Of a stretch of DNA of 64,000 nt, positions 26,030 through 55,866 are shown piece after piece. Made by a program: the position numbers and the translations under genes. Every line of letters starts with the position of its first letter. Position 1 is the stretch's first letter. The notes below the pieces were generated by a model. That model saw nothing but the letters and a program-made list of their open reading frames with translations. It did no database searches and had not been told where the DNA came from. The stretch lies in IMG/VR virus record IMGVR_UViG_3300045988_175246, one strand, 5' to 3'. Source of the stretch: a virus.

Positions 26030-26344
26030 ATGAATAAGCCCGCATACTTCAAGCAGTTCGGCGCAGATGACTACAACATTTTCGCAGTCAAGGACAAGTC
26101 GTATGTCATGAGTCGTTTCACAGACGACCCCGAGGGCGTCTACTACATGCTTTTCGAGCATGTCGAGGGTCAGACCGGCGTCAGCTATTACATGTTGGAC
26201 AATATTCCCGAGACTGTTTTGGACGGTGTTTCCGACGGTGGATATACCGATAGGGAGTTTGCTTCGAGGCTTGCCGGTCAGGATAGGTTTGTCCACAATA
26301 TCAATGTTCGTAGGCTTCTGCATCATTCCCACTTGGACGCCTGA
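26030..26344 (+). CDS. hypothetical protein, family F1 (paralog of 36056..36364)
   Basis: MNKPAYFKQFGADDYNIF...MLFEHVEGQTGV...VHNINVRRLL aligns with MNEYFARFGAEDYNIF...ALFEHIEGHAGV...VHSINIRRIL. Confidence 0.55.
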   Translation: MNKPAYFKQFGADDYNIFAVKDKSYVMSRFTDDPEGVYYMLFEHVEGQTGVSYYMLDNIPETVLDGVSDGGYTDREFASRLAGQDRFVHNINVRRLLHHSHLDA

Positions 26345-26446
26345 ACGATTCCGTAACAGTACTCTTCCTTCCCTTATAGGTTGGAGGGGTTTGTTTTTTC
26401 AGAGGTTGTTTATAGTTTTTTGGGTGTGTCGTTTTTTCGCACGCTG

Positions 26447-26469
26447 TATACTGGGATTGTTCACACAAA
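26447..26469 (+). promoter_or_regulatory. conserved promoter/leader motif copy 2
   Basis: TATACTGGGATTGTTCACACAAA; ATG at 26497. Confidence 0.5.
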
Positions 26470-26496
26470 AGATAAAAGAAAACCAAGGAGCAAAAA

Positions 26497-27321
26497 ATGA
26501 ACAACATCGACAGCATCATCGAACGCATCAACAACCTCATGGCAATAGCCGAAAACGAAGCATCCAGCGACAATGAGGCGCAAATGGCGTTCGAGCGGGC
26601 ACAGAAACTCATCAACGAATATCGTATCGAAGACTGGAAACGCGACCGCACCCGCACGAACAAGCCAATCATCGAACGTGGCGTGAACGTAAGCAAAACC
26701 ACCATCTACCATCAGCAAGGCTACCTTGCGACCATCATCGCCCAAGCTAACGAATGCCGCGCCTACATTCACGAAAGCCGGTGTGGCGGAAGGATTGAGG
26801 AACGTGCCGTCATGTTCGTAGGCGAGGAGGACGATGTGAACGCCGCAGTCCTTCTCTTCCAAAGCATCGACCTATACTGCTCAGTCCACGCCCGCACTAG
26901 CTACGCGGACATGATTGACCAGCACGCCAAAGCGTACTATGAGGACAACAAGGAATACGTCGAAACGCATTACGGACGTGAATCCTATCCGACGCTGACG
27001 GAATGCAAACAGTACATGCGTCGTGATTATCCACGCGCCAAGTTCTACTATGGTTATCGCGGTGGATTCAACGAACGTTTGAGCGAACGTTTCGAGGAGC
27101 TTCGCAAGCAGAGTCTCGCCATTCCTTCCGGTCGTGAGCTGGTGTCATGCAAGAGTCAGCGTCTGAACGAGTATTTTGACAAGCTTGAGCTGGTGCCGGG
27201 TCGTGCGGCCACTGCTCGTGGTAGCAAGGATGGTTTTGCTCGTGGTGTGAGTGACGCGAACAATGTGGGTTTGGGTTTGTCTGAAATGGGTGTTTCGTCC
27301 CATGCTTTGCTGAATGCCTGA
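26497..27321 (+). CDS. DUF2786-like protein
   Basis: N-terminus IIERINNLMAIAENEASSDNEAQMAFERAQKLINEYRI typical of DUF2786 plasmid/phage proteins (recalled, not searched); 274 aa. Confidence 0.45.
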   Translation: MNNIDSIIERINNLMAIAENEASSDNEAQMAFERAQKLINEYRIEDWKRDRTRTNKPIIERGVNVSKTTIYHQQGYLATIIAQANECRAYIHESRCGGRIEERAVMFVGEEDDVNAAVLLFQSIDLYCSVHARTSYADMIDQHAKAYYEDNKEYVETHYGRESYPTLTECKQYMRRDYPRAKFYYGYRGGFNERLSERFEELRKQSLAIPSGRELVSCKSQRLNEYFDKLELVPGRAATARGSKDGFARGVSDANNVGLGLSEMGVSSHALLNA

Positions 27322-27383
27322 CTTTTCAGCCCGCTTCCTTGCTTTGGGGAGTGGGCTGTTTTTGTTTTTTCCTACAAACATGG

Positions 27384-27406
27384 TATACTGGGATTGTTCA
27401 CACAAA
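27384..27406 (+). promoter_or_regulatory. conserved promoter/leader motif copy 3
   Basis: TATACTGGGATTGTTCACACAAA; preceded by hairpin CAGCCCGC...GGGCTG+T-tract; ATG at 27435. Confidence 0.5.
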
Positions 27407-27434
27407 AGATAGATTCCAACAAGGAGGAACAAAA

Positions 27435-27929
27435 ATGATTAAGACAATCACCAACCTCAAAATCACCAAACTACGCGAACTCTCCACACTGTCAGTGGAT
27501 AGTGAATATCTCACAATAGACTACTTGGACGAGGATGGCGAAGAACAGCGAATCGAAAAACTCACCCACGAGGAAGACCTTGGCGAATACAACGTCAAGA
27601 CCGACCTTTGGGAGGACATTCTCGAAGATTGGCGGCTCACCAAGCCGATTCCAGTACCCTCTGCCGAAAAAGAAGACTGGAAACTGCTGGAAGACTATGT
27701 TTGGAACCTCACCGACTCGAAGTATCAAGAACTGTCGGACAATCGCAATAAACTATACGAAGCCGACGACGTGGCGAATATCCTCCGCAGCATCAGTCGT
27801 CTCAGCGACGTAGGACGAGCCACGTTGAACAAACTGCTGGACAATGGTTCCAAGGATGTGGAGAATGAATACACGGAACAGTGGAACCGTATCGTTCCGC
27901 TCCGTCAGGCGGACGGCGAGGAAGAATAG
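27435..27929 (+). CDS. hypothetical acidic protein (164 aa)
   Basis: D/E-rich (LDEDGEEQRIEKLTHEEDLGEY...WEDILEDW...); size and charge compatible with a DNA-mimic (Ard-like) protein, unproven. Confidence 0.45.
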   Translation: MIKTITNLKITKLRELSTLSVDSEYLTIDYLDEDGEEQRIEKLTHEEDLGEYNVKTDLWEDILEDWRLTKPIPVPSAEKEDWKLLEDYVWNLTDSKYQELSDNRNKLYEADDVANILRSISRLSDVGRATLNKLLDNGSKDVENEYTEQWNRIVPLRQADGEEE

Positions 27930-27943
27930 GAGGAACGGGGAAA

Positions 27944-28321
27944 ATGAAGGCACGAGACGTTAGCTTCTTCAAGAAGAACGCTTGGAAGGGCACGTATTCC
28001 AGCATCCTCACCATTCCGGTTGAATCGTTGGCCGACAAGTGTTTCGGCGCTTGGTTGGATATAGAGGACACGAATTTTGCGGAAGCGACACTGCCGGACG
28101 AGAAGCTTGCCGGACGGTTCCGTGAGCTGGTCGATTCCGACGCCGAACAGGCGGAATGGGATGAATTCTATGCTTCCGTTGGCAAGGCTTTTTCCGCCAT
28201 GTCGGTGGATGAACTGGCGTCCAAGTTCGTTGAGCTGAACGACCCTGCGACCATCCGTCGTGTTCTTTGGGGTTACGGGAACAAATGGTATCTCGATTCC
28301 GATTGCGAGTATGAGTTCTGA
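27944..28321 (+). CDS. hypothetical protein, family F2 (paralog of frameshifted 29155..29543)
   Basis: MKARDVSFFKKNAWKGT...LADKCFGAWLDIEDTNF...DSDCEYEF; ATG 27944 inside ORF 27881..28321. Confidence 0.5.
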   Translation: MKARDVSFFKKNAWKGTYSSILTIPVESLADKCFGAWLDIEDTNFAEATLPDEKLAGRFRELVDSDAEQAEWDEFYASVGKAFSAMSVDELASKFVELNDPATIRRVLWGYGNKWYLDSDCEYEF

Positions 28322-28394
28322 CCGTCGGATTTTAGCGCCTCTCCCTTGGATGGGTGGGGCGCTTTTTGTTTGGCGTGTCGTACCCAACATGATG

Positions 28395-28417
28395 TATACT
28401 GGAATTGTTCACACAAA
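28395..28417 (+). promoter_or_regulatory. conserved promoter/leader motif copy 4
   Basis: TATACTGGAATTGTTCACACAAA; preceded by hairpin AGCGCC...GGCGCT+TTTTTG; ATG 28455. Confidence 0.5.
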
Positions 28418-28454
28418 CAAGGGTTCGTAAAACCCATCACCAAAAGGAGAAAAA

Positions 28455-28655
28455 ATGCATATCAAGGATGTTCTGCTTATGACGCTTGTCACCATCGCTT
28501 TCGGTGGGGTGGCAACCGCAGTCGCGTTCGGCATCTACTCGTTCGGCACTTGGCTGTTCACGTTTGGCCGCACGTTCGGTATCGTATCCGTGTGCGCCAT
28601 TACGGTGGTGTTGCTGACCGTCGCGGTTGAGGTTCGTTTGAGCATGAATCGTTAG
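28455..28655 (+). CDS. small membrane protein (2 TM)
   Basis: 66 aa, LLMTLVTIAFGGVATAVAFGIY and FGIVSVCAITVVLLTVAV. Confidence 0.45.
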   Translation: MHIKDVLLMTLVTIAFGGVATAVAFGIYSFGTWLFTFGRTFGIVSVCAITVVLLTVAVEVRLSMNR

Positions 28656-28735
28656 TTTTCAGGATTGTGGCCTCGTCGTTTTGGCGGGGCTTTTGTTTTT
28701 TGGCGTGTCCGTGTTGCCTGTTTTACAAAGTGCGC

Positions 28736-28758
28736 TATACTGGAATTGTTCACACAAA
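28736..28758 (+). promoter_or_regulatory. conserved promoter/leader motif copy 5
   Basis: TATACTGGAATTGTTCACACAAA; ATG 28824. Confidence 0.5.
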
Positions 28759-28823
28759 ACATTGGAACCGTATTACGTCGCATCGTTCAGACAACGGGGA
28801 AGACTGAGAAAAAAGGAGGAAGC

Positions 28824-29039
28824 ATGAATGTCAAGTTCACCGGATTCGACTACATCAGCGACAACGACGGCATGGGCATTCACGTCGTCGCGGGAGCCGA
28901 CGACATCTGGTTGCCGGTCGATGACCGTGAGCGTGTGAGGTTCGCACTCGCCGTGCTGGACGGGTTGGAACCCAAGGAACTGGATGAAGTCGCCTATCAG
29001 TTCGCCTTGGAGAGGACACGCGGACATGGTTCGCTTTGA
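28824..29039 (+). CDS. hypothetical small protein
   Basis: MNVKFTGFDYISDNDGMGIHVV...; 71 aa. Confidence 0.4.
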   Translation: MNVKFTGFDYISDNDGMGIHVVAGADDIWLPVDDRERVRFALAVLDGLEPKELDEVAYQFALERTRGHGSL

Positions 29040-29101
29040 CGCCTTAATGCATTGAAAACGCGCTTGGCTGGAAGCTGGTTTGACGTTCTTGTGCATTCAT
29101 G

Positions 29102-29124
29102 TATACTGGAATCGTTCACACAAA
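29102..29124 (+). promoter_or_regulatory. conserved promoter/leader motif copy 6
   Basis: TATACTGGAATCGTTCACACAAA; ATG 29155. Confidence 0.5.
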
Positions 29125-29154
29125 AACAGAAAGCCATTGAATAGGAGTTAGACC

Positions 29155-29543
29155 ATGGAACACAAGACCAAGGCCGTAGAAGTCAGTTTTCTAAAAACCA
29201 AAAGTGGACGGGCACCGCCACGAGAATGCTGACCTTCCCGGTCGGAGAACTGGCCGACAGGTGCTTGAATGCATGGCTCGATATCACGGATGAAGGCTTC
29301 TCCCATGCCATACTCCCATCCACGCAACTGGCGGAACGGTTCTCCACGCTCATGGAATCGGACGCCGACCAAGCCGCTTGGGACGAATTCTATAAAGCCG
29401 TGGGCGAGGAGTTCTCCCGCTTGTCGGCGGACGAGCTTGCCGCGTTTTTCATCGACCTGAACGACCCTTCGACCATAGAGGCCGTGCTGTGGAGCGACGG
29501 CGAACACGAGTTTTTGGATTCCGGTTGCGAATGCCGGTATTAA
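29155..29543 (+). pseudogene. frameshifted family-F2 paralog
   Basis: ATG 29155 frame gives MEHKTKAVEVSFLKTKSGRAPPREC-stop; frame of ORF 29226..29543 continues ...FSKNQKWTGTATRMLTFPVGELADRCLNAWLDITDEGF matching 27944..28321; shift maps to the ttttctaaaaacc run. Confidence 0.5.
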
Positions 29544-29560
29544 CGAAAGAGGACTTGACA

Positions 29561-29740
29561 ATGAGAACCAAAGCCAAGGAACTGCCAGCCATCCTCACTA
29601 TAGCTGACACGATGGCCTACCTCTCCTGCTCACGCCAGCACGTGTACGACCTGCTGAAGGCCGGTCGCATACGCACCTACAAAATCGGACGACGCCGGTA
29701 CATCGACGCCGATTCGCTCGCCCACCTGTTCTGGAGGTAA
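29561..29740 (+). CDS. excisionase/Xis-family HTH DNA-binding protein
   Basis: LPAILTIADTMAYLSCSRQHVYDLLKAGRIRTYKIGRRRYIDADSLAHL; RBS aaagagga upstream of ATG 29561. Confidence 0.55.
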   Translation: MRTKAKELPAILTIADTMAYLSCSRQHVYDLLKAGRIRTYKIGRRRYIDADSLAHLFWR

Positions 29741-29744
29741 CGCG

Positions 29745-29903
29745 ATGCCGAACGTGAACCGTGTGGTCATGTTGCCCGCCGACCTGTACCGGCTGACCAT
29801 GCAGTACGCCGACGATAACGAACTCACGTGGAACGCGGCGGTGAGAGCACTGGTCGAACGGGGGCTGAGGCAAACCGTCGAACCATGTGGGGAGCTGTCA
29901 TGA
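29745..29903 (+). CDS. small protein (52 aa), possible ribbon-helix-helix
   Basis: Own translation MPNVNRVVMLPADLYRLTMQYADDNELTWNAAVRALVERGLRQTVEPCGELS; stop overlaps next ATG (ATGA). Confidence 0.3.
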   Translation: MPNVNRVVMLPADLYRLTMQYADDNELTWNAAVRALVERGLRQTVEPCGELS

Positions 29904-30223
29904 CCGGGGACAGGCTACCCGCGTTCTTTCTCAAGGGCGTGTGGCAGGGGTTGAAAATAGCCCTCATACCGCACGCCCGTCTGCGTGACCCGTTGGGTCC
30001 CATGCCGACCGTGCGCGATTGGCTCGACATGTACGGAGGCACCCGCATGGACGCGGACATGTTCGACCGTTGCGAGAGCGAATGGTACGCACTGCTGGAG
30101 CAACGGAAACGTCGGATGAGCGCGTTCCTCGCGGGCGGATACGCGGGCACGTGGATGTATGCGATTGGGGTGCTCGTACTGTTGGGGTTGGTCGGCTGGC
30201 GGATTTGGCAGCTGATTCCCTGA
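29900..30223 (+). CDS. membrane protein (C-terminal TM)
   Basis: MTGDRLPAFFLKGVWQGL...WMYAIGVLVLLGLVGWRIWQLIP. Confidence 0.4.
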   Translation: MTGDRLPAFFLKGVWQGLKIALIPHARLRDPLGPMPTVRDWLDMYGGTRMDADMFDRCESEWYALLEQRKRRMSAFLAGGYAGTWMYAIGVLVLLGLVGWRIWQLIP

Positions 30224-30302
30224 GATTCTAAACCCGTCGGATTCGACGGGTTTAGCTTTTTGCGGCTGTGCAGTGAGGGATTTTTGCATTATCCCTCTGT
30301 GG

Positions 30303-30325
30303 TATACTGGAATCGTCCACACAAA
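30303..30325 (+). promoter_or_regulatory. conserved promoter/leader motif copy 7
   Basis: TATACTGGAATCGTCCACACAAA; ATG 30350. Confidence 0.5.
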
Positions 30326-30349
30326 AACCATTTTAAAAAGGAGAACAAC

Positions 30350-30541
30350 ATGTATATAGAACACGCCTACCAGCAGACACAGCAGGTGTGGCCGGTCGAA
30401 TACGAAGACCAGCTCACACTCTTAACTTCGCTTGAGAGCGCCGAACAGTACACCCACGAACACGGGGGAACTATCCTCGACCCCCCCCCGAAGGCTCTGA
30501 GGTCTTTCGTCAGGGCGCAGGGCTTGGTCTTCCGCTTCTAG
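30350..30541 (+). CDS. hypothetical small protein (63 aa)
   Basis: MYIEHAYQQTQQVWPVEYEDQ...; note C8 homopolymer at ~30481. Confidence 0.4.
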   Translation: MYIEHAYQQTQQVWPVEYEDQLTLLTSLESAEQYTHEHGGTILDPPPKALRSFVRAQGLVFRF

Positions 30542-30592
30542 GCGCTGGTCGGCATTTTTGTTTTTCGTATTGTGATATTTCAGACCATGTGT

Positions 30593-30615
30593 TATAGTGG
30601 TCATGTCCACACAAA
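30593..30615 (+). promoter_or_regulatory. conserved promoter/leader motif copy 8 (variant TATAGTGGTCATGTCCACACAAA)
   Basis: ATG 30651. Confidence 0.45.
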
Positions 30616-30650
30616 AAGGGTTCGGCCTCACAACAACAAAAGGAGAAAAC

Positions 30651-30947
30651 ATGAACACCATCCAGCCAATCGCATTCGACAACGGCACCATCAGCATCGT
30701 CGCAAGCGACAACACCTACGACCACACCTACGCAGACAAGCCCATGAACGAAGCCATCGTGGAAACCTCCCACAGCAAGCCCAACCCAACCAACTGGAAG
30801 CACGTCGTATCCAACTGCGACGAACGCTGGAACCTCATCAAAGGCGACGCATGCTTGGCAGTCCTGAGCGGCAACTGGGACGTTTTCGAGAACCGCCACG
30901 AAAACAGAATCATGCTCGTCACCCGCAAGGGAACCCGAATCCTCTGA
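30651..30947 (+). CDS. hypothetical protein (98 aa)
   Basis: MNTIQPIAFDNGTISIVASDNTYDH... Confidence 0.45.
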   Translation: MNTIQPIAFDNGTISIVASDNTYDHTYADKPMNEAIVETSHSKPNPTNWKHVVSNCDERWNLIKGDACLAVLSGNWDVFENRHENRIMLVTRKGTRIL

Positions 30948-31032
30948 CCCATGCTAAAAGCCTCGGGGAGAAGCGTCATCCAGACCGCTTCTCCCCTCTC
31001 TCATATCCGACAAAAAAGAAAGGAAGCCTTGC

Positions 31033-31755
31033 ATGAAAGAACGGGATATCTCGCTGGAAAACGACCTCATGATGTTAGGTCAGGAACCGATGGACGAACC
31101 CGACTCGTCCACCACCATCGAACTGCAAAGAGTAGTCAAAGAGACGGAACGGAAAATGTTGAAACCACCGGCACCGCCCATGGAAGCCGAAAAGAAGAAC
31201 GTTCCTAAGCCCGTCGAACCGAAGAACGACCCTACAGTCAAGACGAAACCTAAAGCAAAGACCGAAACCGTGTCCACGAAAGAACCGAAGACCTACAGGC
31301 CGACCATCTCACGCAAACAGTCAAAACCCGTCAAAATCGCTCCGACCCTCACCAATCCCTATGCTCCCGTCGAATACGATTGCAACGGCAATTGGCGCCA
31401 GCTCGTGGCCGGAATCGCCATCATCGGCGTTCTCGTGGCGGTAATCGCCCTACTGGTAGGGGCCAAAACATATTGGCGGTTCATCACCGTAGGAGTATTA
31501 GCCGCTTTCGCCATGCTCCCACTTTACGGTTGGTTTGATGAACTCGAACGGGATATGGCCGTCAAAGCCGTGGAAAAGGATTACAGGATTCGTATTCTGC
31601 AAGCGAACGGTGGCGGTGGACTGGTGGAAGTTTATTACACGTTCCAGCAGAATCCGACCGTCAAAGCTGGTGTTGTTTCCTATGGTCACGGCTTGGCATG
31701 GTTGCGGAACGCGGACGGTAAGAAGATTGTCGGACGCGGCAAACCGTTGGACTGA
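31033..31755 (+). CDS. membrane protein with K/P/E-rich N-terminal region and two TM helices
   Basis: 240 aa; QLVAGIAIIGVLVAVIALLVGA and FITVGVLAAFAMLPLYGWF. Confidence 0.5.
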   Translation: MKERDISLENDLMMLGQEPMDEPDSSTTIELQRVVKETERKMLKPPAPPMEAEKKNVPKPVEPKNDPTVKTKPKAKTETVSTKEPKTYRPTISRKQSKPVKIAPTLTNPYAPVEYDCNGNWRQLVAGIAIIGVLVAVIALLVGAKTYWRFITVGVLAAFAMLPLYGWFDELERDMAVKAVEKDYRIRILQANGGGGLVEVYYTFQQNPTVKAGVVSYGHGLAWLRNADGKKIVGRGKPLD

Positions 31756-31799
31756 TTGAGTTAATCTGGAAGCAATCACACCCACTACGGTAAGGAGCA

Positions 31800-33480
31800 T
31801 TTGACGTGCTGAACAACGGAATCTGCGCAATCTGCAAAAAGAACAAGTGGACTATCCTCTGCCCCGAATGCTCCCGACCGTTATGTTCCGACTGTTTGAC
31901 GTCCTCCCGGTGTTGAAACACCGGGATTCCAACACTTATCGTGTTGAGGTTTTGCACGTCATGGTGGAAGCGTTCTTCCCGCGATAAGCGGGTTGGACGG
32001 CTGATTCCGTTTCGGCGTGCTCGGCTTCGTCCAAGCCGATAAGATGGTCCAATCCCCGTTTGAGGATGTTGTTGGCCGCGTTCAAGTCGGCGTTCATGCT
32101 CATGTGGCATTGCTTGCATTCGAAGTCCGCTTGGCTTTCACGGTTTCGACTGTCGCAATAACCGCATTCACTGCATGTCTGGCTTGTGTACGCGGGGTTG
32201 ACGAGTATGAGACGGTTTCGTCCGGTCAACTGTGTTTTGTATTCGAGTTTGCCGACGATTCCGCCAAGGCTTGCCGCACGTAGACCACGGTTGAGTCCAC
32301 GTTTTGCCGACTGGCTGTTATGCAGGTACGCGCCCGGCCTTTCCGGGTCTGGTTTGGCTTTCGCCTTGCGGCTCATGTCTTGCAGGTTGAGGTTTTCCAA
32401 TACGATGAGGTCGTATTGTTTGACGAGACTGGTGGTGGTCTTGTGTTGCCAATCGTCTATGATTCGGTGGGCTTTCGCGTACAGTCGGCCGATTTCCCTG
32501 CCGGTGCGCTCATAGGTGCGGCTTGCATGCTGACGGTATTGTTTTAATGTTTTGCCGGACATGCTCACGCGTCTCGCCTGTGCTTTCTGACGGCGGCGTA
32601 TCTCCCTGTCGATACGGTTCAACCGTTCCTTGGGAAGGTCGATGAAAGTGTTGTCGGACGTGGCGAGCGTGTGGACGCAACCCCTGTCCAAGCCGACCAT
32701 GGCTCCCGTGCGCTCACGGCCTATCGGCAGCGGGTCGTTGACGAACACGAGCGTGCGTCGTGTCCAGTTCACCCCGATGCTCGTATAGTCGCGTATGGAC
32801 TGGCTGACCCGGACACGGATATGGATGCTGTAACGGCATGATTGCCCGTCCAGACGATATGCGCCCGGATTCTGTCCGGTGATGACGACCTCGCCGTGAT
32901 TCCGGTTCAACTGCCGGTAGTTCGCGTTCGCGCCCTTATTGTGCCAGCAGACGAAATACAGGTCGTCATGACGTGATTTGAACCGTGGCATCATGCCCGG
33001 ATTCCTATGCTTTTTCTTCAACGTCCTACGACGCTTGTTCGCACTCCACCAGTCCGTGTTCTCTATCCTGTTCGGGGATTGCAACACCATGGAGGGGATG
33101 GCCGCAAGCCAAGAGCATTCCAATCTAACCTGACGGTCGGAACGCATGTCCGGCCTCCCGTTCAACGGGACGGCCGTCTGGGATTCCCTGTCCCACTTGG
33201 TGCGACGGGAGCGCAGCTGATTGTACCTGCAACGCCATCCGTCGCACAGCCAGCGCATCACGATGTCCGGGTTGGTCGAATACAAGGGGGCCTGCTGCCC
33301 GTCTGGGGTCGCACTCATGCCGAGATATGGTGCGGCACCCCGCACCTGCACTCGTTCTATCACGACCTTCTGGGACATGATTCCGATTATATCACTACGC
33401 GCGTATAATGAAAGAAAACTTAGACCGAAAGGAGGGGGCGGTTCCTCCCGGCATTGAAATACCGGGCATCCCCGCCCGGA
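31800..33480 (-). mobile_element. IS200/IS605-family tnpB-only (IS1341-like) insertion within the gene array
   Basis: TnpB ORF with no tnpA; hairpin-rich sequence at 33420-33480 (CCCGG-cattgaaata-CCGGG and flanking GC dyads) resembling IS605 end structures; interrupts the otherwise regular cassette array. Confidence 0.5.
31936..33378 (-). CDS. tnpB: TnpB (IS605 OrfB family RNA-guided endonuclease-like transposase accessory protein)
   Basis: RuvC-like motifs and zinc finger: LVNPAYTSQTCSECGYC...FECKQCHMSMNADLNAANNILKRG; 480 aa. Confidence 0.85.
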   Translation of the reverse strand: MSQKVVIERVQVRGAAPYLGMSATPDGQQAPLYSTNPDIVMRWLCDGWRCRYNQLRSRRTKWDRESQTAVPLNGRPDMRSDRQVRLECSWLAAIPSMVLQSPNRIENTDWWSANKRRRTLKKKHRNPGMMPRFKSRHDDLYFVCWHNKGANANYRQLNRNHGEVVITGQNPGAYRLDGQSCRYSIHIRVRVSQSIRDYTSIGVNWTRRTLVFVNDPLPIGRERTGAMVGLDRGCVHTLATSDNTFIDLPKERLNRIDREIRRRQKAQARRVSMSGKTLKQYRQHASRTYERTGREIGRLYAKAHRIIDDWQHKTTTSLVKQYDLIVLENLNLQDMSRKAKAKPDPERPGAYLHNSQSAKRGLNRGLRAASLGGIVGKLEYKTQLTGRNRLILVNPAYTSQTCSECGYCDSRNRESQADFECKQCHMSMNADLNAANNILKRGLDHLIGLDEAEHAETESAVQPAYRGKNASTMTCKTSTR

Positions 33481-33712: not shown

Positions 33713-33735
33713 TATACTGGGATTGTTCACACAAA
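33713..33735 (+). promoter_or_regulatory. conserved promoter/leader motif copy 9
   Basis: TATACTGGGATTGTTCACACAAA; ATG 33762. Confidence 0.5.
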
Positions 33736-48285: not shown

Positions 48286-48298
48286 GAAAGGGACGATA

Positions 48299-48796
48299 TT
48301 GGAAAACGAAGAAAAATGTCTCACATGCACCAAACGCGAGGTGACACTTTCGGATTATCCGAACTGGTGTCGATGCAACTTGGGCGTACTCCGCGATTGC
48401 GTGAACAGGCTCAACAATTCCGATGCCGGAATAGACTTCGGAATGCATTTCGGAAACCCGGACTTCGTACTGGAAGGCGACCCTAATCCAGCAAAAGAGA
48501 ACATTCTTTTCTGCAAAGAGGACAAAAAGTACGTCTATCTGGAAGTCCTCACCATGGGAGACGAGAACACTCCGAAAGAGCATATTCCAATAGTCCGAAT
48601 GTGCAAACCTTGCATGGCTCTTATGGGGGAATATTTTTGGAGCGAATATCTTCCGAAAGAGTTTTGGGAAGGATACGAGCAAAATGTGTTGCACACTCTG
48701 AAAAGACTGGTGGACGACCCCAGTGTCGAATCAGACGCCGACCTGATTAAGTATGCGAGAGAAATCGTCCACGGCGACATGCTCATCGACTGGTAG
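48299..48796 (+). CDS. hypothetical Cys-rich protein (165 aa)
   Basis: CLTCTKREVTLSDYPNWCRCNLG...MCKPCMALMGEY. Confidence 0.45.
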   Translation: MENEEKCLTCTKREVTLSDYPNWCRCNLGVLRDCVNRLNNSDAGIDFGMHFGNPDFVLEGDPNPAKENILFCKEDKKYVYLEVLTMGDENTPKEHIPIVRMCKPCMALMGEYFWSEYLPKEFWEGYEQNVLHTLKRLVDDPSVESDADLIKYAREIVHGDMLIDW

Positions 48797-48907
48797 TGTC
48801 TGTTGGCTTGTTTTTAAGGAGCGCGTTTTTGGACACGCTCCTTTCTGTTATCGACTTTGACTATCCGTTTTGTGATGCGCGAGAAAAAACTATGTACTAT
48901 CACGTAC

Positions 48908-48930
48908 TATACTGGGATTATCTACATAGA
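48908..48930 (+). promoter_or_regulatory. conserved promoter/leader motif copy 21 (TATACTGGGATTATCTACATAGA)
   Basis: preceded by hairpin AGGAGCG...CGCTCCT; gene start TTG 48943. Confidence 0.4.
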
Positions 48931-48942
48931 GAGGGAGTATTT

Positions 48943-49347
48943 TTGAGACCACAATCAGAAGACACCGGGGAACTCACCACCGTCATCGACCCCGCGTCCA
49001 TCACACGCATGGCGTCCAGCCATCCAGACAACAGGGAGACCACCATGTATGGCAGACATGGCAAGCATGACGGTAAGCCGCCAAAAATCAAAAGGTCGCG
49101 GACTAAAACAGATAAACCCAAACATCCCATAGAACAGGTCATGCTATTCGTCATGCTCGCCGTAAGTATTGTTTTCTTGGCTGGAACGGTGCCGCTTCTC
49201 TGGTTCATGCCGGTTTCGGAACCAGAGGATATGATTGTCCGACCTATTCTGACTGGCTTGATTGGTGTGGCGGCGGTTTCCGCCGACATTCCGGCTTGGA
49301 TATATTTCGCCCGTTGGCGTCGGAATTTATGTAAAAGCCAAATTTGA
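48943..49347 (+). CDS. membrane protein (2 TM)
   Basis: VMLFVMLAVSIVFLAGTVPLLWFM and ILTGLIGVAAVSADIPAWIYF; start inferred downstream of promoter copy 21 (ORF track 48796..49347). Confidence 0.4.
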   Translation: MRPQSEDTGELTTVIDPASITRMASSHPDNRETTMYGRHGKHDGKPPKIKRSRTKTDKPKHPIEQVMLFVMLAVSIVFLAGTVPLLWFMPVSEPEDMIVRPILTGLIGVAAVSADIPAWIYFARWRRNLCKSQI

Positions 49348-49360
49348 AACATTTCCTTGT

Positions 49361-49383
49361 TATACTGGAATCAACCACATTCA
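49361..49383 (+). promoter_or_regulatory. conserved promoter/leader motif copy 22 (TATACTGGAATCAACCACATTCA)
   Basis: ATG 49404. Confidence 0.45.
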
Positions 49384-49403
49384 AGCAAAAGCAAGGAAAA
49401 CAC

Positions 49404-49673
49404 ATGCCTAGAACCACACTGGCCGATGTCGCATCCGACTACGTGCGCAAACACCAGCACGAGCGACAATGCCGACAACTCGACTCCAACAGCCGGGTCA
49501 CGCTCACCGTCATCCAAAACCAGTGGGCGAAACTTGCAGGACAGGAACCCATGACCATTTTCGACGCGCCGGAAGTCGTAATCAGAAGCATCGAAACCAC
49601 ACAACGCGGCCACGAACTGTTCGACCGCACAAAAGAAACAAACGGGGTCGTCTACTACGGCCTGAAAAACTGA
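49404..49673 (+). CDS. hypothetical small protein (89 aa)
   Basis: MPRTTLADVASDYVRKHQHERQCRQLDSNSRVTLTVIQNQW... Confidence 0.45.
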   Translation: MPRTTLADVASDYVRKHQHERQCRQLDSNSRVTLTVIQNQWAKLAGQEPMTIFDAPEVVIRSIETTQRGHELFDRTKETNGVVYYGLKN

Positions 49674-49690
49674 AAGGAAACAAAAACATA

Positions 49691-50080
49691 ATGTCGGAAC
49701 TCGCAGAGGACACCAGAAGGGTAACGCTTCTACTGGGAGACAATCCGGAAGGAAAAACTCAATGGCATACATGCTTGGACTTGTCCCACAACGAGTATGC
49801 CATCCAAAAACTGCGTGAGACCGGAAGACTGGAAGCGGGGAAGGCCACTTCGCTGACCGTCGGACAGTTGCAGAACCTTCTCACCAAGGCACAGAAGGAC
49901 GCCCACGGGTTCCAAGACACTCCCGCCAGCAAATGCTTGCGGGGCAGTGAGCCTGAACGGAGACTACAGGCATACAAGTTCGCTGAAAACCTCAACCGTG
50001 CCCTCTGTGAAGGCTCTCCCGTGTATTGTTCGGAGTTTGAGCCGAGGCTGGACTTATCTTTCCCGAGTTTCAAGGACTGA
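49691..50080 (+). CDS. hypothetical protein (129 aa)
   Basis: RBS aggaaacaaaaa + ATG 49691 inside ORF 49469..50080; MSELAEDTRRVTLLLGDNPEGKTQWHTC... Confidence 0.45.
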   Translation: MSELAEDTRRVTLLLGDNPEGKTQWHTCLDLSHNEYAIQKLRETGRLEAGKATSLTVGQLQNLLTKAQKDAHGFQDTPASKCLRGSEPERRLQAYKFAENLNRALCEGSPVYCSEFEPRLDLSFPSFKD

Positions 50081-50086
50081 CCATAA

Positions 50087-50593
50087 TTGGGAAGGCATTC
50101 AAACAGACAAGCCCGACCGACGACGATAGGCGAGACGCCTTCTTTTGATAGTCTTATCGCCGCCGGGGTGAGGGATGGTGAGGAATGGGTGAGACAGCGT
50201 GTGCAGAAAAGGATAGCCGCCGTACTGTCCGTTCTTGTCGCCCTGTCCTTGTGTTGTGGCGGCGGATACTATTGGTGGGATACCCAAGGCAAGGCGAAGC
50301 GTGCCCATGCCGAAGCTGAGGACGCCTGTTTCCAACAAGTCAGCAGGATGACGGAATCGTATAATAAGTCGCTCCGACTGTATGCTCAGGTGTCTTCCAA
50401 GTTCAACGAATTGGACGAATCATATGATTTGGACACGTTGGCCGCTTTGCAGGATAAGAAACCGAAGGAATATGAGAATCTGCATTGCTCCACGGATTTG
50501 GATGGCGACAATCGGAGGGCTAGGTCTTTGAAACGTTCGTATGATGAGCTTTCGAAGGAGTATCGCAAGGCTCTTACCCCCATTAGAAAATAG
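50087..50593 (+). CDS. membrane-anchored protein (1 TM)
   Basis: RIAAVLSVLVALSLCCGGGYYWW followed by charged helical region. Confidence 0.4.
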   Translation: MGRHSNRQARPTTIGETPSFDSLIAAGVRDGEEWVRQRVQKRIAAVLSVLVALSLCCGGGYYWWDTQGKAKRAHAEAEDACFQQVSRMTESYNKSLRLYAQVSSKFNELDESYDLDTLAALQDKKPKEYENLHCSTDLDGDNRRARSLKRSYDELSKEYRKALTPIRK

Positions 50594-50598
50594 TATGC

Positions 50599-50621
50599 TA
50601 TACTGGAAACGTTCACATACA
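50599..50621 (+). promoter_or_regulatory. conserved promoter/leader motif copy 23 (TATACTGGAAACGTTCACATACA)
   Basis: gene start TTG 50644. Confidence 0.45.
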
Positions 50622-50643
50622 GCCTATCGTTTAGGAGAAAAAC

Positions 50644-51216
50644 TTGCACAACGATAACGTCAACCACCCCAACCACTACACGTCAGGCCCCTTCGAATGC
50701 ATCGAACTGACATCACGATACCCGTTCCTAGGAGGCAACGCAATCAAATACGTGTACCGCTGGCAGGGCAAGAACGGTCTGGAAGACTTAAGGAAAGCCC
50801 TCTGGTATCTGAACCGAGCGAAAGAGGAAAGCCCCTACGAGCCTCTTGGACTCTATCCGCTCGACTCGTTTGTTCCACCCTACTGTTACTTCCACATGGA
50901 CGACGAATCAGTGCATATGCTGAGGAAACTCGCCCGACTCAACTGGCAGAACATGCGAGGATTCTGGAAGGGCATGGCCGAACTCGCTTGCGACCACAAG
51001 TCCGGCTACACCCGCGCCAAGAAGACGTTGGAGCGTCGAATCCGACTGCTGGAATCCATGCTGACCGACGAGGAGCAGACCGTCCTGTCCGCCATCTGGC
51101 AGGACAAGGAGCTGACCGAATCGCAGAATCGAATCGCCTACCGTCTGCAAGCCCGTGGTCTTGCGAAACTGGACAAGTCCGATGGCGTGTGGAACCCGAC
51201 CGGAAAGGAGCGCTGA
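50644..51216 (+). CDS. DUF3310-like protein (NHPxHY motif)
   Basis: N-terminus NDNVNHPNHYTSGPFECIELTSRYPFLGGNAIKYVYRWQGKNGLEDLRKA recalled as typical of phage DUF3310 family. Confidence 0.4.
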   Translation: MHNDNVNHPNHYTSGPFECIELTSRYPFLGGNAIKYVYRWQGKNGLEDLRKALWYLNRAKEESPYEPLGLYPLDSFVPPYCYFHMDDESVHMLRKLARLNWQNMRGFWKGMAELACDHKSGYTRAKKTLERRIRLLESMLTDEEQTVLSAIWQDKELTESQNRIAYRLQARGLAKLDKSDGVWNPTGKER

Positions 51217-51217
51217 C

Positions 51218-51487
51218 ATGAAGGAGGAGAACGAAACGTTCCTTGAGCGAGTGTCCTATGCTATGTTCCGGTATGGTCTGGGTTTGTACTTGCTGTCCGG
51301 AATGGTGTCCCTGTTGGGGCTTGTCGGCTCTTTTTTGCTGAAACGATTTTCTTGGTATTGGGGTTTGCCTTTCGTCGTATGCGGCATACTGTTTCTAGTC
51401 GTGTTTCCACTGGCGTTGTTTCTCCTGTCGGTGGATGATTGGAGACAGAAAAAACATGTCGGAGAAAACGAGATTAAGGTTTCGTAG
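51218..51487 (+). CDS. small membrane protein
   Basis: MKEENETFLERVSYAMFRYGLGLYLLSGMVSLLGLVGSFLL...FVVCGILFLVVFPLALFLL. Confidence 0.4.
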   Translation: MKEENETFLERVSYAMFRYGLGLYLLSGMVSLLGLVGSFLLKRFSWYWGLPFVVCGILFLVVFPLALFLLSVDDWRQKKHVGENEIKVS

Positions 51488-51845
51488 AATCGAAGCCGGA
51501 TTGTTGAAAGCCTTCCATCGGGGTTTCAGTCTGTTGCTGGCGGTGTTTATTTTTACCTTGCTGGCGATTGTGGTGCTTCATGTCCTGTACAGCACGTATG
51601 CCGTGGGTCTTCTGGTAATCCCATCCGTCGTGGTGATTATAGAAGCCCTGTTGGCTGGGTTTGATTTTCTGTTTGAGTTCCTTGCAGGGGATACCACTTA
51701 TGAACAGGCTGGTGTAGAACCCCCCGAAGGAACTTTTTCCAAAAAATCCGAAAATTCTTCCGTGATGGATGACGCTCGTATGTTTGCCGCCGTTTTGAAG
51801 GCTTCTCGCAAGGCTGGCAAGTCGAAGAAGGGTGACGCGCACTGA
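51456..51845 (+). CDS. membrane protein (2 TM)
   Basis: MSEKTRLRFRRIEAGLLKAFHRGFSLLLAVFIFTLLAIVVLHVLY...LLVIPSVVVIIEALLAGF. Confidence 0.4.
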   Translation: MSEKTRLRFRRIEAGLLKAFHRGFSLLLAVFIFTLLAIVVLHVLYSTYAVGLLVIPSVVVIIEALLAGFDFLFEFLAGDTTYEQAGVEPPEGTFSKKSENSSVMDDARMFAAVLKASRKAGKSKKGDAH

Positions 51846-51876
51846 GTTTAGGTTGTCCCCCTAAGATGGTACAAGT

Positions 51877-51899
51877 TATATTGGAATTGTCCACATATG
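51877..51899 (+). promoter_or_regulatory. conserved promoter/leader motif copy 24 (TATATTGGAATTGTCCACATATG)
   Basis: ATG 51913. Confidence 0.45.
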
Positions 51900-51912
51900 G
51901 TAATATGGGGGC

Positions 51913-52446
51913 ATGACTGGTACAACACACTCAAAAGAAATCCTGATGATACGAATCGGATACGCACCCCGACAAGGCCGCGTATACTTCCAACCACACA
52001 CCGTGATGCAGGAATACCTCCGATTCAGCAAAGAACACGACAACCACGTCCTATGGAAATGCGGAATCATCGGCGTCATGAAAAACGTGGAGCAGGTAAT
52101 CCTGTACGCGCACGACGAAGACCTCATGCTCATAGGCGAAGTGACTGGCTTCGGAAGCCCATACAATCCAAGGACATGGGACGAAGGAAGCTTCTACCAA
52201 TGTCCCAAACCATGGTCTAAAGAACCAGCCAAATACTGGATAGCGTTGGACGACCTGAGACCATTGGAAGGTTTCAACCCAGACCTGTATGAACTCGCCG
52301 CAGGTAAAGACAAGGGCAAACCATTGTCCTTGGTGTTCGAACGCAAGGTACCCATGCTGACCATGGCCGACGCCGATGGCAAACGCAAGTCCGCTACCAC
52401 TTCCCGACGTTCGGGGCTTACCCGTATTCGACTACGTGAGGTGTGA
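51913..52446 (+). CDS. hypothetical protein (177 aa)
   Basis: MTGTTHSKEILMIRIGYAPRQGRVYFQPHTVMQEYLRF... Confidence 0.45.
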   Translation: MTGTTHSKEILMIRIGYAPRQGRVYFQPHTVMQEYLRFSKEHDNHVLWKCGIIGVMKNVEQVILYAHDEDLMLIGEVTGFGSPYNPRTWDEGSFYQCPKPWSKEPAKYWIALDDLRPLEGFNPDLYELAAGKDKGKPLSLVFERKVPMLTMADADGKRKSATTSRRSGLTRIRLREV

Positions 52447-52482
52447 ATGGTTCCAGTATTGGACACATTCGCAAAAACACCC

Positions 52483-52505
52483 TATACTGGAAGTAGTCAC
52501 ATAAG
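52483..52505 (+). promoter_or_regulatory. conserved promoter/leader motif copy 25 (TATACTGGAAGTAGTCACATAAG)
   Basis: ATG 52521. Confidence 0.45.
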
Positions 52506-53370: not shown

Positions 53371-53444
53371 TTTTTCCCAAAACAGCAAGAATAGAACCTC
53401 CCTTTCGCGTAAGGTTGTTTACAGCGAAAAGGAGGTTTTCTTCT

Positions 53445-54239
53445 ATGGCATATAATCCGTCAGAACCGCGCGACCCGCTGGGCAAGTGGATGAAAGCGCA
53501 TGGCGGCAATCCGAAGGCGAGTCTTGCCGATAATGTCAAAAGTCTCAACTATGCGGAAGAGCATGGGGCGGCTGTCGATACCAAAAACACGCCGACAGCG
53601 GTAATTGACCAGATAGCCAAGACCGGCAAAGACGAGGACAACCGGCTGGAGGCGCTGATGAACCCGAACATCGGCGACGAGACACTTGACTCGTTCAAGT
53701 ACAGCGACGATGTGAGGGAGCGCACGGCAGTCGCGTCCAATCCGAAACTGGATGGCAAGACGCTCGACATGATGGCGGACGATGACAACTTCTATGTGAA
53801 ACGTGCCGTGGACCTCAACCGCAACACCCCGACCAACACTCTGGAACGGCTCGAAGGCGATGCCGACAAGGACATTGCCGACTACGCTCTCATGGCATGG
53901 TGTCGGAACCGTTCGCTGGAATACTGCAAGGAAGGCGATTACGGTAATCCCAGCGTCCTGCTCGGGCAGAACAGATACCATCAAACACTGAGGCTCGAAG
54001 AGCTTATGGACTACGACGATGTGAGAGACCCCATGCCGCTACCGGGGCAGGACGGTTACAACGACTATATCGAGACCAACGAGAAACTGCATGTCTGCGA
54101 CATATACACGTCGGAGATAGCCACGGAGGCGGCTAGGAACGGCGACTACGACGCAGCCTTGCAAATCTTCGAGGCCGGTCACAGCGAATGGACGGACGAC
54201 AGGGCGGGAACCACCTTCCCCTTAGCAAAGGCAGGATGA
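53445..54239 (+). CDS. LRV/HEAT-like repeat protein, family F4
   Basis: N-terminus MAYNPSEPRDPLGKWMKAHGGNPKAS shared with 54685..55866; repeats of type D..VR..VA.NP.L....L..L (e.g. SDDVRERTAVASNPKLDGKTLDMMADDDNFYVKRAVDLNRNTPTNTLERL). Confidence 0.55.
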   Translation: MAYNPSEPRDPLGKWMKAHGGNPKASLADNVKSLNYAEEHGAAVDTKNTPTAVIDQIAKTGKDEDNRLEALMNPNIGDETLDSFKYSDDVRERTAVASNPKLDGKTLDMMADDDNFYVKRAVDLNRNTPTNTLERLEGDADKDIADYALMAWCRNRSLEYCKEGDYGNPSVLLGQNRYHQTLRLEELMDYDDVRDPMPLPGQDGYNDYIETNEKLHVCDIYTSEIATEAARNGDYDAALQIFEAGHSEWTDDRAGTTFPLAKAG

Positions 54240-54667
54240 AATGCCCCGCCATGGCTATCGACGCGGAGACGAAATTGGCTGACCAGTTCCTCTACCACGC
54301 CTCGTCCGAGCAGTGCGAAAAACTCCATGAGCTAGGCTACGATTCGTCGGCGCAGGGCATACTGAACCGTTTCGACATGACCAACACCATCAGCACCCGC
54401 CCCATGGCGGAACACTGCACGGTGCCGGACAGGCTCGACAGGCTCTCCCAGTCGAAGGACTCAGAGACGAGACTTCATGTGGCGGGCAATCCGAACACCA
54501 GCCTTCACACGTTGGAGACGCTAAGCGAAGACAAGGACGAGAAAGTCAGCCGTAGGGCCGTCATGAATCTTGAACATCGCCGTGAGAATCAAAGACTCTC
54601 GGACGAATACGCGGGAGTCGATTTCAACGACGATAGCGGATACGACGATATCCAATTCGAATACTAA
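54236..54667 (+). CDS. LRV/HEAT-like repeat protein, family F4
   Basis: SETRLHVAGNPNTSLHTLETLSEDKDEKVSRRAVMNLE repeat units; ATG 54236 overlaps upstream stop. Confidence 0.45.
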   Translation: MKCPAMAIDAETKLADQFLYHASSEQCEKLHELGYDSSAQGILNRFDMTNTISTRPMAEHCTVPDRLDRLSQSKDSETRLHVAGNPNTSLHTLETLSEDKDEKVSRRAVMNLEHRRENQRLSDEYAGVDFNDDSGYDDIQFEY

Positions 54668-54684
54668 AAGAAAGTGGAGGAGGA

Positions 54685-55866
54685 ATGTACAATCCTTTAC
54701 AAGCAAGAGACCCGCTAGGCAAATGGGTCAAGGAGCATGGCGGCGCTTCGATTGAGGACGTAGTCTCCAAGACCAGCATGGTCGATTTGGAGAACATGGC
54801 CTTGGATGATAGGACGCCTACCGCCGTGTTGAACAATCTCGCCACGACCGAATACGGGTTCAACCATCCGTTCGATGAGGACAAGACTTATCCGAATGCG
54901 AACGGCGAACCACCGAAGGACGCGAGGGAGAACCGGTACAATTACGAGCAACAGTTGGTCAGATATGACGCCAAGGTTCGTTGCACGGCAATCGAACGTG
55001 GCGCTGATGATACCGCGTTGAGCGTATGCCGGTTCGACTACAATCCCCAAATCCGTAATGCGGTAGCACGCAACACAGATGACGCCCGCACATTGGATGT
55101 GCTCTCGTCCGACGAGTCTTGGAAGGTTCGTGGTGCCGTGGCTGGCAATCCACATACTCCGAAGAACGCTACGGAACGACTGTTGAACGATGATGAGGCC
55201 ATCGTCCGTGCGGAAGCGTTGAAACGTTCGGATTTGAGTTCCGAACAGATTCGGAAAGCCGTGGATGATAGTTTGGAACCGGCCCTTCATGGTGATGGTG
55301 CCGTGACCGATGATATGACGAAAATAACCCGTGCCGCGTCCGACAATTGGCAGGCCGACGCCGATACTCTTCACGAATGCCTTCGTGTGGACGATTATGA
55401 GACTCAACGAAACGTCGCGGAGCATGAGCATACGTCTCAGGAGGATTTGCACCGGCTGGCTTCCAGCGAGGATAACGCTGTCCGCGAGCAGGTGGCGTTC
55501 AACCCCCATGCGTCATCGGCTACGTTGAGCTTTTTGGCCTACGACGATTGGGCTCAGACCCGCGTCAACGTGGCGGGCAATCCCAACACGACTCCCGATA
55601 CGTTGGAGTACATGTCGAACCAGTGGAGTCCGCATGTGAAGCGTGCTATCGCCGTGAACTCAAACGCCTCCGTGGATACGTTGAGAAAGCTGTCCCACGA
55701 TTCAGATAAGACCGTGAGACGATTGGCTTATTCCGGACTGAAGCAAAAAGGTGAGAAACCCATCGACAAGCCATTTAAACCAGCCAAGCCGGTCGAAGAC
55801 GACAATCCCGGAAAATACATGAGCGCCGACTTCAACCCCGTGGAGTTCTTCGGTTTGGATGACTGA
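54685..55866 (+). CDS. LRV/HEAT-like repeat protein, family F4 (393 aa)
   Basis: N-terminus MYNPLQARDPLGKWVKEHGG; many repeats (ESWKVRGAVAGNPHTPKNATERLLNDDEAIVRAEAL; DNAVREQVAFNPHASSATLSFLAYDDWAQTRVNVAGNPNTTPDTLEYM; SPHVKRAIAVNSNASVDTLRKLSHDSDKTVRRLAYS). Confidence 0.55.
   Translation: MYNPLQARDPLGKWVKEHGGASIEDVVSKTSMVDLENMALDDRTPTAVLNNLATTEYGFNHPFDEDKTYPNANGEPPKDARENRYNYEQQLVRYDAKVRCTAIERGADDTALSVCRFDYNPQIRNAVARNTDDARTLDVLSSDESWKVRGAVAGNPHTPKNATERLLNDDEAIVRAEALKRSDLSSEQIRKAVDDSLEPALHGDGAVTDDMTKITRAASDNWQADADTLHECLRVDDYETQRNVAEHEHTSQEDLHRLASSEDNAVREQVAFNPHASSATLSFLAYDDWAQTRVNVAGNPNTTPDTLEYMSNQWSPHVKRAIAVNSNASVDTLRKLSHDSDKTVRRLAYSGLKQKGEKPIDKPFKPAKPVEDDNPGKYMSADFNPVEFFGLDD

Follow-up and report, generated by a model that had tools for sequence, protein, structure and literature searches.

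The 64,000-nucleotide stretch of DNA analysed here, hereafter the window, is catalogued as viral in IMG/VR (record IMGVR_UViG_3300045988_175246). With a probability that we put at roughly three in four, it is part of a conjugative megaplasmid of about 180 kb belonging to the pMP7017 family, in which old, anciently duplicated gene pairs are embedded in a co-regulated accessory array. This array comprises about 55 mostly orphan genes, located between replication genes and type IV secretion genes, and harbours four paralog families, namely, F1 to F4 (Table 1). The element family and its promoter motif have already been published, whereas the four families are not described in the published work on pMP7017. 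A first-pass annotation of the window had taken them for signs of ongoing gene duplication, divergence and loss; the families themselves stand, but not the recency of their duplication.

Table 1. Positions of the features discussed in the text (aa, amino acids; pI, isoelectric point; ORF, open reading frame; DGR, diversity-generating retroelement)
Feature	Position	Strand	Remarks
F1a, acidic orphan, 104 aa	26030..26344	+	own promoter motif at 25982; terminator-like hairpin at 26370-26389
F1b, F1a paralog, 102 aa	36056..36364	+	promoter motif at 36014; hairpin at 36417-36434
F2a, 125 aa, pI 4.4	27944..28321	+	preceded by one other gene in the cassette headed by the motif at 27384
F2b, 129-aa gene once the frame is restored	29155..29543	+	54% identical to F2a; motif directly upstream
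F3a, 306 aa	34691..35611	+	promoter motif at 34645
F3b, F3a paralog, 321 aa	36519..37484	+	promoter motif at 36475; terminator hairpin at 37497-37532
F4ab, one LRV-repeat gene, 407 aa	53445..54667	+	N-terminus MAYNPSEPRDPLGKW; split in the window by loss of a C at 54218
F4c, LRV-repeat protein, 393 aa, tandem paralog of F4ab	54685..55866	+	immediately upstream of the VirB4-like ATPase gene
Promoter/operator motif TATACTGGAATTGTTCACA, 24 copies	25982..52501	+	heads gene cassettes; variant of the 34-bp motif of pMP7017
VirB4-like conjugation ATPase, 886 aa	56012..58672	+	AAA_10 (VirB4/TraC-type) by domain scan; identifies the element
Frameshifted small gene, in none of the four families	39260..39582	+	80-codon ORF left, from TTG at 39340
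TnpB (IS605 OrfB/Cas12f-like) insertion element in the array	31936..33378	-	domain scan
RNase T-type exonuclease	41833-42417
RNA ligase	45938-46993		phrog_968, TIGR02306 type
RCC1/SdrD-B/SpaA surface protein, 1796 aa	13977-19367		just upstream of the DGR
DGR variable repeat	20178-20333		C-terminus of the 326-aa gene at 19364-20344
DGR template repeat	20965-21120		22 of 23 mismatches at template adenines
DGR reverse transcriptase	21312-22541
One-base length differences from other assemblies	25955, 28695, 28696, 29193, 30331, 30555, 35980, 37534, 40679, 41507, 41508, 54218, 59327, 63589

Identity of the Element

The ATPase encoded next to the array is the protein that best identifies the element. 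In tblastn searches of a plasmid collection, it was 66.5% identical, over 99% of its length, to a protein encoded by the 190-kb plasmid pMP7017 of Bifidobacterium breve JCM7017, and about 63% identical to those of five B. longum megaplasmids (169-198 kb). The window and pMP7017 also have a gene order in common, in which DnaB (54% identity), a ParB-like protein, an exonuclease (56%), a 179-aa gene (40%), the ATPase and a hydrolase (42-53%) follow one another. The pMP7017 family has been defined by a RepB replicase with iterons and at least 70% identity to the backbone proteins of pMP7017 (PMC10832533). The replicase gene is located outside the window, and the backbone proteins compared here are 40-66% identical, which is under this value, and the window therefore represents a sister lineage, related to but distinct from pMP7017 itself. 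With regard to other genes, domain scans of the window detected DnaB, a protein with a ParB-like nuclease domain (the name used by phage annotators), a reverse transcriptase, a TnpB on the minus strand and an RNA ligase. The hydrolase, of 778 aa and peptidoglycan type, combines NlpC/P60, tail-lysozyme, glucosaminidase and CHAP domains, and an FtsK/SpoIIIE protein of 1130 aa is encoded just downstream of the window. The most likely host is B. adolescentis or a close relative, as judged from the names of the clusters to which window proteins belong. At 90% identity, the clusters of DnaB and F2a are named B. adolescentis and that of the RNA ligase B. catenulatum, and F3a relatives sharing 64% identity bear the name of B. 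pseudocatenulatum or B. catenulatum. At the DNA level, 20-25 kb of the window had no megablast match in phage and plasmid collections, and positions 1-25000 matched no plasmid of PLSDB.

The VirB4-like, FtsK/SpoIIIE and cell-wall hydrolase genes make up a conjugation module of the Gram-positive type, and the closest relatives of the element are plasmids of cultured Bifidobacterium, including pMP7017, reported to be conjugative. It is thus highly improbable that the element is a large bacteriophage and that the families are phage early genes, although more than 115 stretches bearing the promoter motif occur on IMG/VR 'viral' contigs of up to 217 kb, and although the window contains a DGR, a tail-lysozyme domain, a DUF3310 protein, an RNA ligase and several PHROG matches. 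A set of 50,697 phage genomes yielded no DNA match and no tblastn match to the ATPase and FtsK proteins, and neither capsid and portal genes nor a convincing terminase were found by domain scans of the 64-kb window and the 8 kb beyond it.

Dozens of IMG/VR 'viral' contigs (loci L002-L116 and L123-L150), most of them of 110-217 kb, are relatives of the element, with the motif, array genes and a VirB4-like ATPase that is 96-99.9% identical; the exact ATPase sequence is present on 103 contigs. The viral label of this contig family is probably wrong, the contigs being misclassified plasmids, and this illustrates a pitfall of such labels.

Sequence Errors and Supposed Decayed Copies

Exact-protein look-ups retrieved two assemblies of the same sequence, ENA ERZ504881 NODE_20 (180,364 bp) and JGI 3300053491 (180,288 bp); a third one, ERZ504860, is error-prone (loci from other assemblies are numbered L117, L118 and L121; further L numbers below designate loci of relatives, unless stated otherwise). 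Compared with NODE_20 and JGI 3300053491, the window shows no substitution but 14 one-base indels over 35.4 kb (Table 1), of which 13 correspond to a base missing from the window in a run of at least five identical bases, and one to an extra T in a T3 run. The fraction of runs that are contracted climbs with run length, from 0 of 309 for length 4 to 4 of 100, 4 of 33 and 5 of 8 for lengths 5, 6 and 7, respectively, and is therefore a signature of sequencing error rather than of evolution. As a consequence, frameshifts that coincide with a homopolymer run must be distrusted throughout the window and not be taken for gene decay. Outside the families, the indel at 59327 alters the end of the gene at 58669-59511, whose product has 280 aa in the window and 256 aa in NODE_20.

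These errors account for two of the three events that had been cited as decayed copies. The frameshift of F2b reflects one A missing from an A6 run at 29193, which is A5 in the window; the gene is an intact ORF of 129 aa in three other assemblies and three loci of relatives, and in five further loci its residues 1-126 are matched without a change of frame. A programmed -1 frameshift in F2b was also weighed but rejected, as the otherwise identical assemblies carry one more A and the intact ORF. Similarly, F4a and F4b, initially counted as separate members, are the two halves of one gene of 407 aa, hence F4ab, in which the window lacks one C of a C5 run. F4ab is a single ORF in NODE_20 and a single full-length match in 24 of 28 loci of IMG/VR relatives, with 96-99% identity in 23 of those. 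The third event withstood scrutiny. In the small gene at 39260, a 1-nt deletion after codon 5, away from any homopolymer, is also present in assembly L117 of the same sequence, whereas L120, which is 99.6% identical, has the gene in full (109 aa).

Four Paralog Families

Inspection of the window confirmed that ORFs are present where the members had been placed, and that they contain the motifs quoted for them. When six-frame stop-to-stop segments of the window were compared with each other by BLASTP, the best pairs of the four families gave E values from 1e-12 to 3e-46. F1a and F1b are 44% identical over 119 aa (E 3.5e-26), and F2a and the F2b segment (29145-29540) are 52% identical over 124 aa (E 1e-43). 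F3a and F3b can be aligned along their full length, as had been proposed, with 31% identity over 312 aa (E 3e-46). F4c shares 32% identity over 173 aa with F4a (E 1e-12) and 33% over 100 aa with F4b (E 2e-5). When each of the about 55 array genes was used in an iterated jackhmmer search of the window and its relatives, represented by 16,447 six-frame segments, these four families were recovered and none besides. The similarity lies far beyond chance, and the paralogy is therefore real. Elsewhere in the window, outside the array, an extra weak paralog pair was noticed on the minus strand (4121-4660 and 3783-4142, 37% over 78 aa, E 7e-14).

F1 and F2 are orphans restricted to Bifidobacterium. 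F1a has 16 homolog clusters, none of them named, and the 18 clusters of F2a are all unnamed or 'hypothetical', that at 90% identity carrying the NCBI name 'hypothetical protein [Bifidobacterium adolescentis]'. When 1.84 billion representatives were searched exhaustively with a profile of F2, only 45 clusters emerged, with B. dentium and B. moukalabense among the sources of their members. At least 1000 contigs carry one member of an F2a cluster. At least one relative carries a third F2 copy elsewhere on the same contig (L006 with L004), and the families are therefore larger than the window shows. F1, F2 and F4 proteins are acidic, with pI values of 4.3-5.2. With regard to function, no functionally annotated Pfam or PHROG family matched F1 to F4, the sole matches being LRV/HEAT repeats and one PHROG with no assigned function; PHROGs gave nothing for F1 to F3, and profile searches of these three against PDB sequences gave nothing below an E value of 0.02. 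Fused relatives of F2 contain no Pfam domain hinting at a function. A single weak match, to a helicase-associated-domain protein, was judged spurious, and the UniRef label 'DUF1642' of an F2a cluster member was not reproduced by a Pfam scan at E <=0.1. A segmental duplication of F1 and F3 together was also weighed but rejected, as F1a is followed by a DUF2786 gene and not by an F3 copy.

Age, Selection and Loss

Codon alignments revealed that synonymous sites are saturated in all four pairs. The proportion of synonymous differences (pS) and the synonymous divergence (dS) amount to 0.62 and 1.3 for F1 (45.5% aa identity), 0.70 and 2.0 for F2 (54.4%), 0.67 and 1.7 for F3 (32.1%), and 0.74 and 3.0 for F4 (34.9%), while dS between close orthologs in relatives (at least 80% aa identity) is only about 0.1-0.2. 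In addition, each copy of F1 to F3 is kept separately, at about 90% identity or more, in most relatives. The duplications thus long predate the sampled plasmid diversity, and the persistence of both copies as separate lineages under purifying selection indicates that they are functional and have diverged in function. The proposal of ongoing duplication does not agree with pS values of 0.62-0.74 in every pair, nor with the relatives, which display losses and allele swaps but no gains.

Gene-wide ratios of non-synonymous to synonymous divergence (dN/dS), obtained by the Nei-Gojobori method for orthologs with at least 80% aa identity, are 0.40 and 0.16 for F1a and F1b, 0.21 and 0.22 for F2a and F2b, and 0.155 and 0.14 for F3a and F3b. 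This range of 0.14-0.40 falls within that of other array genes (0.05-0.45). Some relatives carry, at the same position, divergent alleles instead (65% identity for F3a, 64% for F1a and 72% for F4c), for which dS is 0.7-1.2 and dN/dS 0.16-0.29, compared with 0.03 for the neighbouring VirB4-like ATPase; one dN/dS value for VirB4, against L127, was at odds with the tblastn identity and was not used. Gene-wide, these values reveal purifying selection on all copies. The F1 to F4 copies are constrained, but less so than the transfer machinery, and their variation arises mainly by swapping of old alleles and not by fast point evolution.

Divergence and loss do occur, and they are seen in the relatives, as insertion elements, remnants and frameshifts, rather than in the evidence originally cited. 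F1b is cut to its last 41 codons, a 3' remnant, in four loci (L026, L048, L094 and L016). In F2a, 16 bp are tandemly duplicated in L093 and a deletion affects a T run in L057. F3b has a +G frameshift common to L062 and L077, lies in fragments in L028 and is reduced to a short N-terminal fragment in L031. Together with the events at the F4 locus described below, these cases show that single copies are dispensable, being lost sporadically by insertion elements, deletions, recombination between tandem copies, and frameshifts. Such loss is not specific to paralogs, since other array genes show similar sporadic frameshifts.

These data bear on the proposal that the families form an arms-race gene set, devoted to anti-defence or host takeover and currently undergoing duplication, rapid diversification and pseudogenisation, which we consider rather unlikely. 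The array is highly mosaic between relatives, with adjoining cassettes passing from 96% to 80% nucleotide identity, copies are lost in relatives, the family proteins evolve 5-10 times faster than VirB4, and F1, F2 and F4 are acidic. The RNA ligase, nucleotide kinase, GNAT acetyltransferase and exonuclease of the array could be counter-defence enzymes, and anti-defence genes are known to be concentrated in the leading regions of plasmids (PMC11541004), of which the array might be one. However, no duplicate is recent, dN/dS is below 0.45 for every member, as for other array genes, and two of the three cited pseudogenes are artefacts. Furthermore, a search of F1 to F4 and 45 other array proteins against Pfam and PHROGs (E <=1e-3) yielded no match to a known anti-defence family. 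A counter-defence role of F1 to F4 is possible.

Promoter Motif and Gene Cassettes

A conserved motif precedes nearly every small gene between 25982 and 52483. In pMP7017, Dineen et al. described a 34-bp motif that overlaps the -10 hexamer, occurs in 19 copies and is predicted to drive 56 genes; it was found only in pMP7017-type plasmids and read as the binding site of a regulator (PMC10832533). The exact variant of the window has a single match among 185,579 species-representative genomes, in a non-bifidobacterial metagenome-assembled genome, which was taken as chance. On IMG/VR contigs, which reach 217 kb and mostly measure 110-217 kb, it occurs in more than 115 stretches, and this marks these 'viral' contigs as relatives of the present plasmid. 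One copy lies directly upstream of each of F1a, F1b, F2b, F3a and F3b. The F4 pair is located behind the motif at 52483, with no further copy between the pair and the ATPase gene. Terminator-like hairpins are present 3' of F1a, F1b, F3b and several neighbours.

Comparison of the window with its relatives revealed that homology blocks (at least 85% identity) begin or end at the motif 3-5 times as often as expected: of 104 left ends, 48 fall within -60 to +40 nt of it, as do 27 of the 95 right ends, against an expected 8.8%. Neighbouring cassettes pass from 96% to 80% nucleotide identity between relatives (L002-L116). The clustering of block ends points to a cassette of promoter, gene and terminator as the unit of variation. 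Cassettes appear to be exchanged by recombination at the motif, and the array, an accessory region of a mobile element, turns over fast. A bolder version, in which the motif doubles as a portable recombination site allowing integron-like exchange and duplication of single cassettes without an integrase, and in which F1 to F4 are interchangeable determinants of host range or anti-defence across Bifidobacterium hosts, strikes us as unlikely.

Predicted Solenoid Proteins F3 and F4

The AlphaFold2 model of F3a, with a mean predicted local distance difference test (pLDDT) score of 87, begins with a small helix-strand domain, of the winged-helix type, and continues as an alpha-solenoid. The top Foldseek matches of the model are alphaRep scaffolds, E. 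coli YibA and the A subunit of PP2A (E about 4e-3, template modelling scores of 0.3-0.5). In Pfam, the HEAT families (PF02985/PF13646) score just under their cut-offs, with 22.2 bits against 23.5 for F3a and 19.7 against 27.7 for F3b. On the basis of the model, F3 is predicted to associate a winged-helix-like domain with a HEAT-like alpha-solenoid.

The LRV-type repeats attributed to F4 were verified, since both proteins exceed the Pfam LRV (PF01816) cut-off of 21.6 bits, F4c with 75.9 bits (E 1e-21) and the F4a and F4b parts with 23.2 and 22.4 bits, respectively. The claim that three F4 members share an N-terminus must be reduced to two, as F4b lacks the M(A)YNPxxxRDPLGKW sequence, which only two window proteins carry. 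The full motif, (A)YNPxxxRDPLGKW(V/M)KxHGG, is encoded at 53445-53514 and 54685-54751 and nowhere else in the window. Nowhere else is the pair as well conserved as over these first 20 residues, where the DNA is 73% identical over 64 nt. F4c is intact in 12 of the 28 loci; in 14 it is broken after codon 22 by a plus-strand TnpB element, about 250 codons being missing, and in two it is broken after codon 104 by a different TnpB element on the minus strand. L143 has a larger deletion at the F4 locus. L126 possesses just one F4 gene, a hybrid whose N-terminus is of the F4ab type and whose body is that of F4c, and which, to judge from the sequences, is likely to have arisen by recombination across the conserved 5' 64 nt. 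For both F3 and F4, a solenoid fold indicates a binding scaffold, without telling the ligand.

The location of F4ab and F4c directly upstream of the VirB4-like gene raises the alternative that F4, and possibly F3, are accessory parts or substrates of the conjugation machinery, the F4 N-terminus being a secretion or assembly signal. The strong conservation of the N-terminal 20 residues and of the 64-nt stretch would agree with this, as would the fact that no motif copy follows that at 52483 before the F4 pair is reached, an arrangement suggestive of a shared transcription unit. Yet the pair is absent between the same flanking genes in pMP7017, insertion elements have inactivated F4c in 16 of 28 relatives, in contrast to the neighbouring ATPase, which is conserved at 96-99.9% identity, and L126 makes do with a single hybrid copy; we therefore regard such a role as unlikely, somewhat more so than the arms-race proposal.

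Putative Role of the Families

The preferred reading remains that of old gene pairs in a co-regulated array of a megaplasmid. F1 to F4 are most likely co-regulated accessory proteins, two of the families being binding scaffolds, that would act in the establishment of the plasmid or in its interaction with the host. The pMP7017 transcriptome suggests, by analogy, that the cassettes may constitute a co-regulated plasmid regulon. The F3 and F4 solenoids might bind host or plasmid macromolecules, each paralog being tuned to a different partner, and such binding could serve either of these purposes. New combinations of cassettes would be generated by recombination at the common promoter motif.

Several points weigh against this proposal. 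Membership of the regulon is predicted from the motif, and the clustering of breakpoints may partly reflect the fact that the motif is the sole conserved intergenic sequence. Neither an origin of transfer (oriT) nor a relaxase was located; MOB-suite detects no relaxase in pMP7017 either. F3a and F4c have no specific match in PLSDB, which includes pMP7017 and the B. longum megaplasmids, and the 50 kb of pMP7017 that were compared contain no F1, F2 or F4; nothing can therefore be transferred from plasmids already studied. The structure model of F2 is of low confidence (pLDDT 67) and without a fold match, and none of the four families has a function assigned by experiment or by homology.

Megaplasmids of this kind are common in human gut Bifidobacterium, and most of their genes have no known function. 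Being old, conserved, individually dispensable and with their own predicted transcription, F1 to F4 make up a short list of candidates for studies of plasmid-host interaction, two of them being, according to the fold predictions, probable binding scaffolds.

Other Genes in the Window

TnpB elements are active in this plasmid family. In L023, the site at which the array of the window carries its TnpB element is considerably shorter. F4c was hit independently by two further TnpB types (L135-L150, at about 2240-4000), which share 56% and 30% identity with that of the window. Other recognisable proteins of the array include an exonuclease, a GNAT acetyltransferase, a nucleotide kinase, an RNA ligase, an R2K ATP-grasp protein, HTH_17, DUF2786/DUF7168 and DUF3310. 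The pairing of a nucleotide-kinase-like protein with an RNA ligase recalls, by analogy, the counter-defence of phages through tRNA repair. Upstream of the array, the window contains a complete DGR (19364-22541). Its location just downstream of the gene for a surface protein suggests that the DGR probably acts on a plasmid-encoded protein of the cell surface or one involved in adhesion.

Comparison with Known Systems

The element most resembles the pMP7017 family described by Dineen et al. (2024, PMC10832533), with which it shares the size class of about 180 kb, an ATPase at 63-66% identity, TnpB insertion elements, and the succession of DnaB, ParB-like protein, exonuclease and cell-wall hydrolase genes. 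Both have the same kind of conserved motif, overlapping the -10 hexamer and heading many mostly unassigned genes. A weakly F3-like gene with the motif upstream is also present in pMP7017 (L122, 39231-40163), for which the supplement of PMC10832533 gives no annotation. In contrast, the window proteins bear names from the B. adolescentis/catenulatum group and not from B. longum or B. breve, the motif is a different variant (GGAATTGTTCACA instead of GAATATGTCCACA), F1, F2 and F4 have no counterpart in the part of pMP7017 compared, and paralog families are not mentioned in that study.

The array also resembles the leading-region or establishment arrays of conjugative plasmids (Samuel et al. 2024, PMC11541004; pLS20, PMC8708921), which are likewise long, on one strand, composed of small and mostly uncharacterised genes, located beside transfer genes, equipped with dedicated promoters and subject to high turnover between related plasmids. 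It differs from them in that Pfam and PHROGs gave no match to ArdA, KlcA, Acr, SSB or PsiB in the window array, and in that its promoters are of the ordinary double-strand -10 type with a conserved operator-like extension, and not single-stranded DNA promoters (Frpo). At the protein level, the best structural matches of the F3a model are HEAT-like/PBS-lyase alpha-solenoids (YibA, 1oyz, and alphaRep), from which F3 differs by scores under the Pfam HEAT cut-offs and by an extra winged-helix-like domain at the N-terminus. F4ab and F4c resemble the LRV repeat proteins (PF01816), above the Pfam cut-off, and are distinguished from them by the family-specific YNPxxxRDPLGKW motif at their N-terminus.

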